From Octopus sinensis (taxonomy: Eukaryota): a stretch of 64,000 nucleotides of DNA. Both the position numbers and the translations under genes were made by a program. Positions 6,256-41,586 of this stretch are shown piece by piece. The notes beneath the pieces are model-generated. The model saw only the letters and a list, made by a program, of their open reading frames with translations. It had not been told where the DNA came from and did no database searches. The stretch spans positions 94,054,001 to 94,118,000 of the forward strand of contig NC_043000.1 of NCBI RefSeq assembly GCF_006345805.1, written 5' to 3'. How positions within the stretch are numbered: the stretch's first letter is position 1; each line of letters begins with the position of its first letter.

Positions 6256-6786
6256 AGCAATAATAATTCTCTAAATGAGATATAGACAGTGACTGCTCCG
6301 TAATATAGGATATATTAGCCAACCGAAATGGCTAGGGACAGGGCAGGGTGGTGGGGGTGTCACTGTTGCATTTAGCCCCATGCGAACATCAACGTCACCA
6401 GATAGGCCTGACGCCATCACGGCGTCCTCTATCTTGCAAAGGAGATCATCCACCAAGAAGCAGATACCACACACGGACCTAGGTTTCAAGGTTGTATTGC
6501 CTATTATCAACGTGTGGTAGGCATCGCTTCTCGATGAACGCCAACTGTGCAAGATATATAAGGATTTTCAAGTAATACATTACTGATTTCGAAAATCTGT
6601 TCGACAGCAATAATAATTCTCTAAATGAGATATAGACAGTGACTGCTCCGTAATATAAGGATATTAGCCTTATATGCAACAATGCAACAGTGACACCCCC
6701 ACCACCCTGCCCTGTCCCTAGCCATATTCGGTTGGCTAATATCCCTTATATTACGGAGCAGTCACTGGCTAATATCCCTTATATTC
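6256..6786 (-). mobile_element. (TA)n-flanked PLE-like pLTR unit with direct and inverted repeats and a hammerhead
   Basis: 6256-6320 is repeated directly at 6606-6669. 6287-6371 is inverted at 6681-6766. Hammerhead on the minus strand at 6516-6470. Confidence 0.75.
6470..6516 (-). ncRNA. Minimal type I hammerhead ribozyme, U3-A8 core variant
   Basis: CACACG-TTGATAA-TAGG(CAATACAA)CCTT-GAAA-CCTAGG-TC-CGTGTG: 6-bp stem I, palindromic stem III, GUC site. Confidence 0.65.
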
Positions 6787-9700
6787 TATATGTATATATA
6801 TATATATATATATATATATCTATGTGTGTATATATATATATGTATATGTATGTATGTATCTATGTATACACACATATATATATGTGTGTGTGTGTGTGTG
6901 TATGTGCCTGTGTATGTAACTAAATGTATATACTATTTGTTTTTGTCTACATTTTAAATGAAAGAGTTTAGAAAATGTTCTTATGCTCATACTTTTTCCG
7001 GAGAAAACCCAAGTAGTTAATATGTTATCACCGTTTAGTGGAGGAATATAATACGATGCCGACTGGAAGGCTTCAACTTTATGGCTCGAAATTATGTATA
7101 TTGTGGACATTTACACACACACACACACTACCGTACATGCCGTATCCCGAACACTTAGCCCTCATGTAATATATTTGTGCTTTACTTAAGGACCCTGTTT
7201 TAATACAGGTTATAGACAAATGCCTTTATTCTCAGGAGCAGCAGATACGAAAAACGAAATACAAAACACGGAAAGAAAATAGGAAGCAAAATAAAAATAC
7301 GAAAATATACCGTTACCAGAAAATAGTGAATAATAGAAATACTTTATATAATAAATTGTCGTATTCATAGAGGAAACAAAGTTACGAGTGACTTATATTC
7401 ATTTTGGTGTGTATGATTCAGAAATGACTTTGAGATTGGCAATAAATAAAGTCGAAGTTTGGAAACGTAACCTCTTTGTCATTTAAATTTCCTGGTTTTA
7501 TCTGAAGTTCGGGTGAGTGGAATTCTTTGAATAAAACTTTCTTTCGCCCATCAATAAAGGTCAATAAGTCATCTTTGTACCGAAAATTATCGTTAAATGT
7601 CTGTAATTCACTTTATATACATATATTTGTGTGTGTGTACGTGTGTGTGTGTGTTTGTGTGTGTGTGCGTGCGTGTGTACGTATATATAAAATATCATAT
7701 ATTTTATAGACATACGCATATATAAACATACGCATACTCATATATTTATTTGATTTAATATGTATATATATATGCGTGTTTGCGTGTGTGTGTGTACCAA
7801 ATCAAACATGTAAGTTTATATGTGCATATGTATATAAATATATATTACATACATATATACATGCATTGATTAGATGCATATTGTGCATATTACACACACG
7901 CTCATATATGTGCGCATGTATATATTACACACACACACAAATATAAATGTATACATTATATATATATATATATATATATATATATATTATATATATAACG
8001 TATATATATATAATATTATATATATATATTATATATATATATAACGTATATATATATATACATACCTATATATACACGCACATATATATATATATTTTAT
8101 ACATGTAATTATACATGTTTTGTATAAATGTATGTATACAGACACACACACACACACACACACACACACATATATATGAATATATATACACATACACACG
8201 TATATTAAATGATCTTAAATAAATCGAGCTGGATGTTTTTGATCGTAATGGAAGAGAAATAGATCAGCCGAGAATCCCCGTTAGTTTTCCTATTATCTCC
8301 TGGAAACAAGGAATTGAATTTTGGTAGCTGTGACAGTAACGGCGTCGGCGTCGGCGTTGGCCGTATTAGTGGTGGTGTTGGTTGTGGAACTGGCGCAAGT
8401 GGCGGTGGTCGAGTTGGTGGCGGGAAGGGGGTTAGAAACGACAGTTGTCGGGTAGAAAATTTATTGCACCCTTAATTGAAATCTAACTGTATTATAACCA
8501 ATTCTTCTTTATTTTAGTTATTTAGATTATAGGATATTATTTTAATATTTATTATATTCAATTTCTCTGTTGTATCTAAGCCTCTCTGTGAATGTATGTT
8601 GGTATGTATCTCCTTGTATGTGTCACATATGCATGTTACAGACGTGTGGTCTTTGTCTTATATGTACCTATGTAAGTATATTATTTCATATATATTCATA
8701 TGTGTATGTGTTTTCTAGGGGCTACTTTTAATACTAATCCTTTGTGACGACCAATCGCCCACCTTAACGATTTAACACTGATAAATAACAAAATTTTCTG
8801 TTTCTTCTTTGACAGCAAAGTCGATGGCTGTTTTTGAAAAGCAGTCAGCGTTTATTGTGTGCAGATCTAAAGAAACTAGAAGTCTACCATATTTTATACT
8901 CTTATTAAATTTCGCTTGATCGATGAAATGTTGTTTATTTTCTTTTGTTAAAGTCTTTTTCTTAGTTTATTTCGAAAATTTTTCGAATTATTTGAAGAAA
9001 TACTACTTTTATCTGAAAAAAAAATTAAGAAAAAACGTAGGAAAAGAATTTAAATAGAAAAAAAGGTGTCCATTAAATTTATTGTTTGTCGGTGATTCCA
9101 TTGACATTTCATTGTCGTCGACTTAGTTATTATCGCCATCACTCTCATCGTCATTGCAGTCGTCATTGCAGCCGTCAGTCTCGTCGTCGTTGTCGTCATC
9201 GCCGCTGTCGTCGTCTTCGTGCTGATTGCCGTCATCGTTCGTTATCATCGCGGACATTATAAAACATCAGAGCGTCGGATTATATATAATGCATTGCGAT
9301 ATTTGTTCTGGGTATCTACGCTCTGAGTTCAAATCCAAACAAGAGCAACCTCATAGTGCCGATAAAGTATCAATCAAGTTACGTGTTATAATTTATCTCT
9401 TTTAAACTCAGATCTGCATGTAGGAGCACACACACGCACACACACACACACACACACGCACACACACACACACACACACACACACATACACACACACACA
9501 CACAAACACTCAGACGCACACTATTAAACGCCTAGAATTAAAATCTATTTTCTAATAGCTCTCCAGCAGCGAGGCACAGTTTCGTATATACATATATATA
9601 TAGACACAATTAATGATATTAAGTGGCCTAGCGTATAGAAGAATTTAGTCAATAGACTATATATTAGTTTCCATCATAGGAATTTTTAGTGGTTTGGACT

Positions 9701-9852
9701 TTAGCTGTTCTTTCTAGCGTAAAGGATTCCTATGATGGAATCCTTTTAATGTGCTTAAATGTAAACTGTATTTTACATATAGTTAGAATGGGAGAGCGTG
9801 AGAGAAAGCTATAGAAACATAGATATATGTATGACTATATATATGTATGTAT

Positions 9853-10042
9853 GTCGCCATGATAGATCGTTGGCCACTACACACATTTTTTTCTATTCTT
9901 GTTTTTTCTGTGTCCCTTTCTGTTGAAGAGCGTAGGCTCGAAACGTAAAAGACTTTTTCTATTCCTGAGAGTTATACTAATACATCTGTTTGTTTTGTAC
10001 CCCACGTCTTCGTCTTTTGGTTTTTCGTAAACTCTCCCTATA
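9853..10042 (+). mobile_element. PLE pLTR-like fragment with a degenerate hammerhead
   Basis: CTGTTGA-A-GAGC(GTAG)GCTC-GAAA-CGTA at 9920-9947. Same family as 5331-5540. Confidence 0.55.
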
Positions 10043-10099
10043 TTCATACATACACACACACACACATATATATATATATGTATATATATATATATATAT

Positions 10100-39997: not shown

Positions 39998-40039
39998 TTT
40001 TTTGATAAGGTTCATTTCAGGAACTGAAACATGTTATAA
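39998..40039 (+). ncRNA. Minimal hammerhead motif, U3-A8 variant, in the PLE pLTR
   Basis: TTGATAA-GGTTC(ATTTCAG)GAACT-GAAA-CATG-TT-ATAA. A more degenerate second motif lies at ~39916-39980. Confidence 0.55.
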
Positions 40040-40078
40040 TGTATATATAAAAATTAAAAATGTATAATATAGCAGCAT

Positions 40079-40178
40079 NNNNNNNNNNNNNNNNNNNNNN
40101 NNNNNNNNNNNNNNNNNNNNNNNNNNNNNNNNNNNNNNNNNNNNNNNNNNNNNNNNNNNNNNNNNNNNNNNNNNNNNN
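40079..40178. other. Assembly gap (100 N)
   Basis: Run of N. Confidence 1.
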
Positions 40179-41254
40179 TCTACGGCTAGCCTTCTAATCA
40201 GTATTTCTGCTACTCTCTGATAACTATACCTCCTACTCTCCCTTCCCAACTCCTTTTTCATTGCCACTCCTCCTCTCATTTGAATTTTCACGACTCTCTG
40301 CTTATCTCTGCCTCCTTACATCACTCTCATGTTCCTTCTTTTCTCTCTCTCTCTCTCTCTCTCTCTCTCTCTCATTGTCTCTCTCTCTTTTTCTCTGTTT
40401 TTCAGTCAATCAATTATCCAGTTTTCTACCAATTATTGTCTGTTGATCAATTTCTCTAGCTTTTTATCATGTTAGCCATTTTCTTGTACTTATATCACTC
40501 TCTCACTTTATTCATCTGTCTATCTATCTATCTATCTATCTATCTATCTATCTATCTATCTATCTATCTATCTATCTATCTATCTATCTATCTATCTATC
40601 TATCTATCTATCTATTTATCTATCTATCTATCTATCTATCTATTCCTTTTTTCTTTTTTTCTTTTTCCCTTTTACGATCCCTTTTGATCGAAAACCTACG
40701 TCACTTTTTTCTTTTGCATCCTCCAAAAGAAAAGCTCTACCTTGTAATTTGTCCCATCTGTTTGCAGCCCTATGTGGCCAATAAAGAAACTTATCTATCT
40801 ATCTGTCTATCTATATATCTATCGATCGATCGCTCTATCTGTCTGTCTGTAGAACTATCTATCTATTTGTCTGTCTATCTATCAATTGACGTATCTATCT
40901 TTATATCTACATATCTCATTTTCTATTTATCATCTATTTATCCATCTGTCCATCTATCCATCCATCCATCTATGCATCCATCCATCCATCCATCCACATT
41001 TCATTCTCTCACAATTTATCTACATCTATCTATCTATCTGTCTGTTTTTCTACCTATCCATCTATCTATGTATCTATGAATCTATCTATTTATTTACCTT
41101 TATATCTGTCTGTCTGTCTGTCTATCTATCTAGCTCTCTACCTATCTATCTGTCTGTCTATATATATATATATATATATATATATATGTGTGTGTGTGTG
41201 TGTGTGTGTGTGTATGTATATATATATATATATATATGTATGTATATATATATG

Positions 41255-41586
41255 ATTGCAGCGTGGAAGGTGTTTGTAAACCATTTAAGAAACAGACAAA
41301 AGCCGTTCGATTCACTTCAACATTTAAGTTTAATTTGTCAAAATATTTTCGTCGCTTTAAGACCGCGACCTGTTCACTGACAAAAATCCGTGCTTGTCAG
41401 TGAACAGGTCGCGGTCTTAAAGCGACGAAAATATTTTGACAAATGAACTTAAATGTTGAAGTGAATCGAACAGCTTTTGTTTGTTTCTTAAATGGCTTAC
41501 AAACACCTTCCACGCTGCAATTGTTTTCGTTTCAGCTCACGATCTCAGATCAAATCACTTGCTATGGCAGGTACATCTCCGTATTC
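41255..41586 (+). mobile_element. (TA)n-flanked fold-back PLE-like insertion (~128-bp arms, 10-nt loop, ~65-bp tail)
   Basis: 41255-41383 and 41394-41521 are reverse-complementary with a few mismatches. Confidence 0.85.
41394..41442 (+). ncRNA. Minimal hammerhead motif with a G3-C8 swapped core
   Basis: TTGTCA-GTGAACA-G-GTCGC(GGTCTTAAA)GCGAC-GAAA-ATAT-TT-TGACAA. Confidence 0.6.

Follow-up and report, generated by a model that had tools for sequence, protein, structure and literature searches.

The window, by which we mean the whole 64,000-nucleotide stretch of Octopus sinensis DNA analysed here, holds six loci at which two arms of one segment meet head-to-head, and the inverted arms described in the initial annotation were seen at every one of them (6/6). 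All six are genuine inverted structures, each from a high-copy family of its own (F1 to F4, P5, and F6). Together with their candidate hammerheads and a relic, N1, they are arranged as follows.

6257..6669, minus strand: F1 tail-ended arm of 1.2 monomers, ending at the (TA)n at 6223-6256; retrozyme-like 356-nt tandem monomer
6470..6516, minus strand: F1 candidate hammerhead, minimal type I, with a U3-A8 core, a palindromic stem III, and a GUC site
6670..6786, plus strand: F1 pLTR-ended side, with junction letters 6670-6680, arm 6681-6776, a short re-duplication, and then (TA)n
14539..14758: F2 (357-nt monomer), short inverted arm 14539-14607 (minus) and tail-ended arm 14608-14758 (plus)
15966..16337: F3, tail-ended arm ~15966-16278 (minus), 10-nt loop 16279-16288, and short inverted arm to 16337
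~16053-16113, minus strand: F3 candidate hammerhead, C3-G8, in the tail-ended arm
30275..30557: F4 (~330-360-nt monomer), pLTR-ended arm 30275-30384 (minus) and tail-ended arm 30396-30557 (plus)
30581..30861, minus strand: P5 tail-ended arm with a 150-nt tail; 3' end of an apparently Hydra-like RT + GIY-YIG PLE
30862..31001, plus strand: P5 pLTR-ended side, with 9-nt loop 30862-30870 and then a hammerhead-bearing arm ending at (TA)n
30855 and 30877: cores of the P5 candidate hammerheads, in the tail-ended arm (C3-G8) and the pLTR-ended arm, respectively
38433..40039, plus strand: N1 relic, a 5'-truncated, frameshifted copy (97%) cut by an N gap
41255..41583: F6, pLTR-ended arm 41255-41383 (minus), 10-nt loop 41384-41393, and tail-ended arm 41394-41583 (plus, 62-nt tail)
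Both arms of 41255-41583: F6 hammerhead-like motif with a swapped G3-C8 core

At 6257-6786, 30275-30557, 30581-31001, and 41255-41583, (TA)n stands on both sides and one arm runs on into a tail, as previously stated. The tails, first given as 30-150 bp, measure 44-150 nt on family copies, and in N1, F1, F2, and F4 the tail consists of the beginning of the next unit. The F3 locus, earlier placed at ~16050, reaches ~15966, with (TA)5 at 15955-15964, and the F2 copy at 14539 is an older one that has lost its hammerhead and has no (TA)n on its left side. The short loops that had been listed are true hairpin loops at three loci, with 9 nt at 30862-30870 (a continuation of the tail-less arm, with 1-nt microhomology at the join) and 10 nt each at 41384-41393 and 16279-16288. 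Elsewhere they do not hold: the 11 nt at 6670-6680 are extra junction letters next to a true hairpin loop of 64 nt, both F4 arms end at one family position and the 11-12 nt at 30385-30395 are a local duplication, and the 55-nt "loop" at 14539 is divergence between arms that meet at 14607/14608 with an offset of 21 nt.

The GIY-YIG relic noted at 38435 is real and extends over 38433-40039. Long copies of N1 carry a 781-aa RT + GIY-YIG ORF with a Neptune-type cysteine linker, and inspection of this ORF found a CX2-5CxxC linker and CCHH in the C-terminal GIY-YIG. By its motifs N1 appears Neptune-type, although it may also be a Nematis element. The relic had been considered the PLE partner of the inverted loci and was dropped from that role because none of the six families matched it at the DNA level.

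Family identity and candidate hammerheads

The P5 family continues upstream into an RT + GIY-YIG ORF and represents the 3' end of an RT + GIY-YIG PLE, contrary to the view that all of the insertions are non-autonomous derivatives. Among the families examined, such an ORF is present in P5 and N1 only; F1-F4 and F6 yielded neither an RT + GIY-YIG ORF nor a protein partner, and in the 7 copies examined no ORF was encountered on extending F3 (~1.1 kb, low-complexity) and F6 (~340 nt) upstream. In Pfam searches, the P5 and N1 ORFs matched RVT_1 with E values of 1.2e-6 and 1.2e-3, both scoring below the curated cut-off, and GIY-YIG with 3.3e-6 (scoring above the cut-off) and 3.5e-3 (scoring below it). 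The inspected P5 translation has a C-terminal GIY-YIG without CCHH, with CxxC and CxH around a conserved E and N, which are the features given for Hydra in section 11 of PMC8557442, the part of that paper used here. An asparagine-rich, cysteine-free stretch stands before the endonuclease instead of the Hydra CxCX5C linker. We consider P5 to be Hydra-like, judging from partial copies, none of which is full-length.

The F1, F2, and F4 families consist of tandem monomers with periods of 356, 357, and 359 in reference copies, each with a type I hammerhead, and thus fall within the size range of retrozymes (150-400-nt tandem monomers with a type I hammerhead). On this sequence basis they are retrozyme-like, with 356-359-nt monomers, and they are likely mobilised by PLEs as small parasites.

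Hammerheads had been reported at four loci, and they were recovered at 6470-6516 (minus), at ~16053-16113 (minus), and in both arms of 30581-31001 and of 41255-41583; the F4 family hammerhead lies upstream of the part retained at 30275-30557. The core is C3-G8 in P5, F2, F3, and F4, U3-A8 in F1 (identical in 112/112 family pattern matches, not de-duplicated), and G3-C8 in F6 (43/43, likewise not de-duplicated). The U3-A8 variant has already been published (PMC4209133). With paired positions 3/8, stems I and II, and a palindromic stem III, the family motifs are candidate minimal hammerheads of the PLE kind. A strict descriptor run over the window returned only the two motifs of 30581-31001, with 0-1 per shuffle in 20 shuffles, and those of the other three loci were recognised by visual inspection, followed by a check against the family copies. 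Among the 150 of 249 matches listed from an Rfam scan (E up to 1) there was no hammerhead, only microsatellite-driven miRNA matches.

Of 74 P5 3' ends, 69 are followed by (TA)3 or more, and across the families (TA)n flanks both sides at 110/130 junction loci, which bears out the proposed (TA)n targeting. The PLE origin, the presence of several families, the hammerheads in the arms, and the formation of the junction at insertion were likewise borne out. The six loci follow the published PLE architecture, in which a 5'-truncated partner lies inverted, one arm bears a tail, the targets are (TA)n, and the hammerheads are minimal. This architecture is already known, the elements belong to established classes and are unremarkable within them, and these families may already stand in the supplements of PMC8557442.

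Pairing of two fixed ends

One family has 1101 exact matches to a single 25-mer, and young copies are thus numerous enough for the junctions to be measured. Raw counts gave 392 head-to-head and 27 tail-to-tail arrangements. We collected 166 distinct junctions, of which 135 had both ends classed (31/166 unclassed). A tail-ended arm was joined to a pLTR-ended arm in 130/135 classed junctions, so the tail is on one arm only; tail was paired with tail in 4 and pLTR with pLTR in 1. Single-ended P5 copies adjoining (TA)n also occur, with 15 pLTR-only and 10 tail-only among 74 loci. Extra letters are present at 55/130 junctions, some being unaligned family variants, and the breakpoints are therefore approximate. 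Microhomology of at least 2 nt was found at 47/75 clean junctions, compared with 19% of simulated junctions.

The few perfect zero-loop palindromes of other sequence in the sampled blocks would suit assembly fold-back artefacts, or MITE-like palindromic units moving as fixed elements. However, arms within a locus differ by 1-6% and end at two fixed family positions, the centre varies among copies, and the ends are asymmetric, unlike in a fixed palindromic element with symmetric terminal inverted repeats. Many distinct inversion joints of these families also occur in contigs of the public run X18, and X19 and X20 contribute one joint apiece; the joints listed from these runs did not include those of the window. 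This reading is largely refuted, and we regard it as extremely improbable.

In hundreds of copies the two arms begin at different fixed points. Each was therefore likely copied on its own from one side of the DNA cut, and the two products were joined afterwards. The inverted pair thus likely results from two primings on the strands of the (TA)n site, with the cDNAs joined head-to-head. The PLE endonuclease would cut both strands at a (TA)n site, each cut strand would prime reverse transcription, one of them at the tail end and its partner at the pLTR end, and these two separate priming events would use the same RNA or the same source. The two cDNAs may then be joined head-to-head through microhomology by polymerase-theta-like end joining. 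Jointly with this explanation, we consider the window loci to be probable 5'-truncated insertions of PLEs and of retrozyme monomers likely mobilised by PLEs.

Arm ends, offsets, and loops

Of 120 P5 arm 5' ends, 24 fall in the interval of 195-208 nt from the pLTR end, compared with 3 in that of 209-222, and a TATA...TCA pair with 28-nt spacing is found at this pile-up. The same pair and spacing occur in F6, where the ends stop at 142-147. The motif and the pile-up point to a predicted, TATA/Inr-like pLTR transcription start in P5 and F6; no such wall is evident in F1, F2, and F4. The cleavage site is at 53, and the interval around it, 50-58 nt from the pLTR end, contains only 1/120 P5 arm ends. 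Hammerhead cleavage was rejected as a source of arm 5' ends, and the description of the insertions as ribozyme-processed finds no support at the junctions.

The unbiased offset statistics are those of P5, from a position-ordered sample of 46 pairs. The near-constant loop of ~10 nt does not survive genome-wide, as offsets in this sample span 0-844 nt. Offsets of 16 nt or less were found in 17/46 pairs, against 5.8 expected by permutation (roughly threefold), with 0-5 and 6-16 nt each enriched, and those of 17-40 nt showed no enrichment (4 against 6.0). Seven of the 46 loci were corrected by eye; the uncorrected count is 14/46 against 5.05 (p 1e-4). Short offsets are thus one mode of the distribution and no general rule. 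The tail-less arm is the longer one in 29/46 pairs, the tailed arm in 13, and the two are equal in 4; at L366, L367, and L380 the tail-less arm is 2.1-2.7 kb longer, and 12/46 pairs share no sequence.

Long palindromes are unstable, and it could be supposed that near-perfect palindromes arose first and later lost their centres, producing the spread of offsets. Loci with more private divergence do not have larger offsets (Spearman -0.32, p 0.03), and a difference of 48-308 nt is already present at 12 of the 15 youngest. At 7 loci the tailed arm falls 83-308 nt short of a pLTR-ended arm that is still complete up to the 5' wall. We therefore consider this sequence of events very improbable.

The initial annotation favoured a cDNA fold-back or template switch, and self-priming by a cDNA or antisense template that copies itself, with the second arm derived from the first, is in print for head-to-head palindromes (Arkhipova 2013, PMC3846280, in the passages cited here). 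The enrichment of short loops agrees with it, as do recurrent variants common to both arms (52 shared and 20 one-sided in P5, 73 and 3 in F1). Little or no within-locus excess of shared variants was seen in F4 and F6, and such variants could equally reflect one active source or inter-arm conversion. A tail-started cDNA would give neither a longer tail-less arm nor non-overlapping arms, both of which contradict a fold-back footprint for the long-offset class, and a pLTR-started cDNA cannot supply the tail; the existence of pLTR-only copies also speaks against this route. We consider this route improbable.

Under two-strand priming, the ~10-nt loops would form one sub-class of junctions, made when the two cDNAs ended almost together on the RNA, in many cases at the predicted pLTR start, and were linked through complementary bases no more than ~15 nt from their termini. 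Polymerase theta searches 15 bp for microhomology, according to the part of PMC7165422 cited here, and the ending of the offset excess at 16 nt is in line with this. It is also conceivable, if rather unlikely, that two cDNAs form as proposed and that the short-loop class arises by snap-back, in which the 3' end of one cDNA primes its own extension and the sense strand made in this way pairs with the other cDNA (synthesis-dependent end joining); hairpin geometry would then set the loop. True loops of 5-13 nt in 14/28 short-class rows (one locus counted twice) fit this course, as does the same 7-nt-loop junction in loci of different haplotypes (L309, L319, and L374), and junction inserts match nearby sequence in 11/26 cases compared with 12% of shuffles, a figure inflated by unaligned variants. 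However, zero- or one-nt loops, present in 8/28 of the same rows, are impossible by intramolecular priming, and 0-5 and 6-16 nt offsets are both in excess. Zero-loop palindromes lie at self-complementary 2-6-mers at 6 P5 loci. The 7-nt-loop junctions (206/196) recur, and are compatible with snap-back priming too.

The sequences themselves show family identity, the two fixed 3' ends and their pairing, the offsets, the microhomology, and the arm-shared variants. We lean slightly toward the view that PLE integration is two-ended by design, with tail-end and pLTR-end priming of the same RNA and joining of the cDNAs by the host. If true, this rule would account for the tail being one-sided, for the inverted 5' copy and the short-loop palindromes, and for the great number of stubs with hammerheads, as RNAs beginning at the pLTR promoter, and it would cover autonomous PLEs and retrozymes alike.

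Comparison with known systems

For L1, Ostertag and Kazazian reportedly described in 2001 a twin priming with two primings from the two target strands. L1 twin priming shares with our loci the two-strand priming, the inversion, and the microhomology at the join, and our non-overlapping pairs look alike. Unlike in L1, the second priming here would be at a fixed site, the pLTR end, and most pairs overlap, duplicating the 3' end as a palindrome.

The inverted 5'-truncated partner, the head-to-head junction, and the one-arm tail are those of EN+ PLE insertions, as are the (TA)n bias, known from Neptune, Naiad, and Hydra, and the hammerheads in pLTRs, in the cited passages of PMC3846280 and PMC8557442. 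Tails reach 150 nt here, in contrast to the 30-40 bp in those passages, in which the junction is attributed to endonuclease resolution or self-priming, with no statistics on junctions. The origin of the tandem and inverted structures and one-sided tails of PLEs is named as open in the cited part of Craig et al. (2021, PMC8557442); junction statistics make this mechanism testable and offer sharp predictions for an existing in vitro system. In that system, the Poseidon_Ac protein cuts and extends both strands, reverse transcription has two start sites bounding the tail, targets are AT-rich, and hammerhead cleavage is unneeded (Frangieh et al. 2024, PMC11167929, in the sections cited here), all of which resembles our loci. 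Those sections discuss neither inverted insertions nor start-site pairing, "inverted" occurring once, for a blocking base. They report that start-site choice was alike on both strands, and one-of-each pairing is therefore not yet explained in vitro.

Animal non-LTR retrozymes have been described in the cited parts of PMC7229834 (Cervera and de la Pena 2020) and 10.64898/2026.07.22.740005 (Li et al. 2026). The F1, F2, and F4 families resemble them in their ~330-360-nt tandem monomers, type I hammerhead, and PLE-bearing genome. They differ from the retrozymes in these parts by carrying the PLE insertion signature, a tail-ended and a pLTR-ended arm at (TA)n, and hammerheads that appear to be of the minimal kind. 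This signature on retrozyme monomers gives direct structural support for their mobilisation and insertion by PLE machinery.

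Arm recovery and loop lengths

In this 2.7-Gb genome, which is rich in microsatellites, the inverted arms proposed at six loci of the window (G000:C4:94054001-94118000) were recovered at all six by masked self-BLAST and a hairpin finder. Each locus carries its own high-copy family (990–3798 candidates per family at first look), and the arms meet as follows.

6257-6786, family F1: 11 extra junction letters at 6670-6680; the hairpin loop is 64 nt
14539-14758, family F2: arms meet with a 21-nt offset
15966-16337, family F3: true hairpin loop of 10 nt (16279-16288)
30275-30557, family F4: local duplication at 30385-30395, with both arms stopping at one family position
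30581-31001, family P5: true hairpin loop of 9 nt (30862-30870)
41255-41583, family F6: true hairpin loop of 10 nt (41384-41393)

The initial annotation had proposed a near-constant loop of ~10 nt; a true loop near that length is present at three of the six. A ~1.8-kb tandem duplication, near-identical (99%), also lies in the window (49197-50909 and 50993-52699).

A survey of 600 kb, taken regardless of content, yielded 21 hairpins with (TA)n no more than 5 nt from one arm end, two or three of which are simple-repeat hairpins. Their loops span 1–288 nt and are shorter than 10 nt in 7/21. In P5, an exact 25-mer at the pseudo-LTR (pLTR) end has 1101 genome matches, and the first 100 listed by position formed an ordered sample. 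Four places were left out (on contig C1, three that lie at even spacing next to fetched copies and were assumed to be duplicates; on C2, one), and 5 of the 79 loci examined were removed as the same insertion seen twice. The remaining 74 comprise 46 pairs of a tail-ended and a pLTR-ended (tail-less) arm, 15 pLTR-ended arms alone, 10 tail-ended arms alone and 3 others. Offsets between the two 5' ends range from 0 to 844 nt (n=46), and 17 of the 46 are ≤16 nt against 5.8 expected, a count reached in 0 of 20000 permutations. Seven loci had been corrected by eye; uncorrected offsets gave 14 against 5.05 (p 1e-4), and exclusion of arms ending at 190–210 gave 10/29 against 3.25 (p 2e-4). An earlier, partly overlapping P5 sample gave 11/29 short offsets against 3.9, and permutation of the ordered sample revealed no enrichment at 17–40 nt. 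Because the offset spread is broad yet short offsets are enriched, the short loop is a real mode and not a constant, and the striking claim does not hold as it was worded.

Junctions and a proposed two-ended joining model

All fetched loci, mostly chosen by similarity and hence length-biased, provided 166 distinct head-to-head junctions, with both ends classed in 135; 130 of these 135 join a tail to a pLTR. A single cDNA folding back, one origin first suggested, cannot produce what is found at these insertions, since the tail-less arm extends further in the 5' direction in 29/46 pairs of the P5 ordered sample (the tailed arm in 13/46), the arms lack any common sequence in 12/46, and the tail-less arm is longer by 2.1–2.7 kb in three long copies. 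No extra letters are present at 75/130 junctions, and 47 of these 75 show microhomology of at least 2 nt, as compared with 19% of simulated junctions; extra letters at the other 55 are in part unaligned family variants. At six P5 loci the palindrome is perfect and has no loop, with a self-complementary 2–6-mer at its centre. Recurrent variants within insertions are shared between arms in P5 (52 shared, 20 one-sided) and F1 (73 and 3), sharing is weak in F4 (8 and 4), and in F6 no measurable sharing was seen. No growth of offset with age was found. Contigs from public run X18, which may be the source sample, hold many different inversion joints of the window families, and those from X19 and X20 one each; none of these joints is a join of the assembly itself.

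In vitro, Poseidon_Ac cuts and extends both strands of AT-rich DNA, begins reverse transcription at two sites bounding the tail, and can dispense with hammerhead cleavage (PMC11167929). We suggest that one target end would prime at the tail end and the other at the pLTR end of the same RNA or source, that each cDNA would halt early or run off the RNA 5' end, and that the two would be joined at microhomology. Polymerase theta searches for microhomology within ~15 nt (PMC7165422), and cDNAs halting near one point, combined with such a search, would give loops of 0–15 nt. Possibly, the short-offset class is instead made by snap-back synthesis. The two-ended joining model was not found in the literature searched, a coverage without several older papers on Penelope-like elements (PLEs), and the junction statistics offer it as a testable model for the PLE insertion mechanism.

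At G000:C4:17371800-17373900 (L291, L292), an entire P5 fold-back insertion recurs at least three times in head-to-tail order, the copies being separated by (TA)n, reflecting either local amplification via flanking microsatellites or an assembly effect. Long zero-loop palindromes of other families with hardly any mismatch (G000:C1:100000001-100001084; L383:2734-3405) are either insertions of very young age or artefacts of read fold-back.

Arm ends, predicted promoters and hammerheads

Ribozyme processing had also been proposed; the P5 arm ends lend it no support, as 1/120 lies around the hammerhead cleavage site. Distances from the pLTR end are 195–208 nt in 24/120, 209–222 nt in 3 and >208 nt in 12 in total. 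A TATA lies 28 nt before TCA at position 205 in P5, the same spacing recurs at the 5' wall (146) of F6, and it is 27 nt in N1, a separate PLE family with TATAAAA at window 39659. The N1 3' UTR (window 39300-39700) carries four to five GATGACGTC (CRE-like) repeats before TATAAAA, and repeats, TATAAAA and TCA likely constitute a pLTR promoter. Judged from the arm ends and these motifs, most short copies would derive from RNAs starting at the predicted pLTR promoter.

Hammerhead motifs are indeed present at four loci, as claimed. A strict descriptor matches only the two in 30581-31001; the remainder were identified by eye, are conserved across family copies, and have U3-A8 cores in F1 and G3-C8 in F6. 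The F6 motif (window 41394-41441 and 41336-41383) is hammerhead-like with a predicted UUU cleavage triplet, and its swapped core is identical in 43/43 family pattern hits; it is a natural instance of a double swap that rescues cleavage only in part in Poseidon_Ac. Several more families in the 600 kb (blocks on C4, C1, C2, C3 and C5) have minimal hammerheads of other kinds and hairpins anchored at (TA)n; they are unmatched to the seven references.

Coding capacity and relation to known elements

N1 is represented at 38433-40039 by a relic, a 97% copy without DNA matches to any of the six families; long N1 copies have a 781-aa RT ORF. Upstream of this ORF, and overlapping its start, is an open frame of 479 codons (L211:2705-4144; also L215, L222), an ORF1-like arrangement; the Pfam match of this frame is weak (E 0.006). 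Upstream extension of P5 leads to an ORF that encodes RT (YRDD), a stretch rich in asparagine, and a GIY-YIG domain bearing Hydra-type motifs; no full-length P5 copy was recovered among the fetched copies. Extension of fetched F3 and F6 copies reached low-complexity sequence, and an ORF was not found. An intronless frame of 335 codons (L366:1931-2935), some 1.1 kb away from a long P5 insertion, resembles by eye an aminergic G-protein-coupled receptor in having a DRY motif and seven hydrophobic stretches.

The elements at the six loci belong to an already known kind. Published work already describes the inverted partner, the tail on one arm only, the bias to (TA)n and hammerhead pairs on opposite strands 100–700 bp apart (PMC3846280; PMC8557442; PMC4209133). 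Retrozymes are viewed in publications as non-autonomous PLE derivatives, and F1, F2 and F4, which are tandem monomers (periods 356, 357 and 359 in reference copies) bearing a minimal hammerhead, match the non-LTR retrozymes described in PMC7229834 and 10.64898/2026.07.22.740005. Finally, the long asparagine-rich stretch that separates RT from endonuclease in the P5 ORF (L366, L381) resembles the N-rich inserts of Adineta vaga Penelope elements (PMC3846280).
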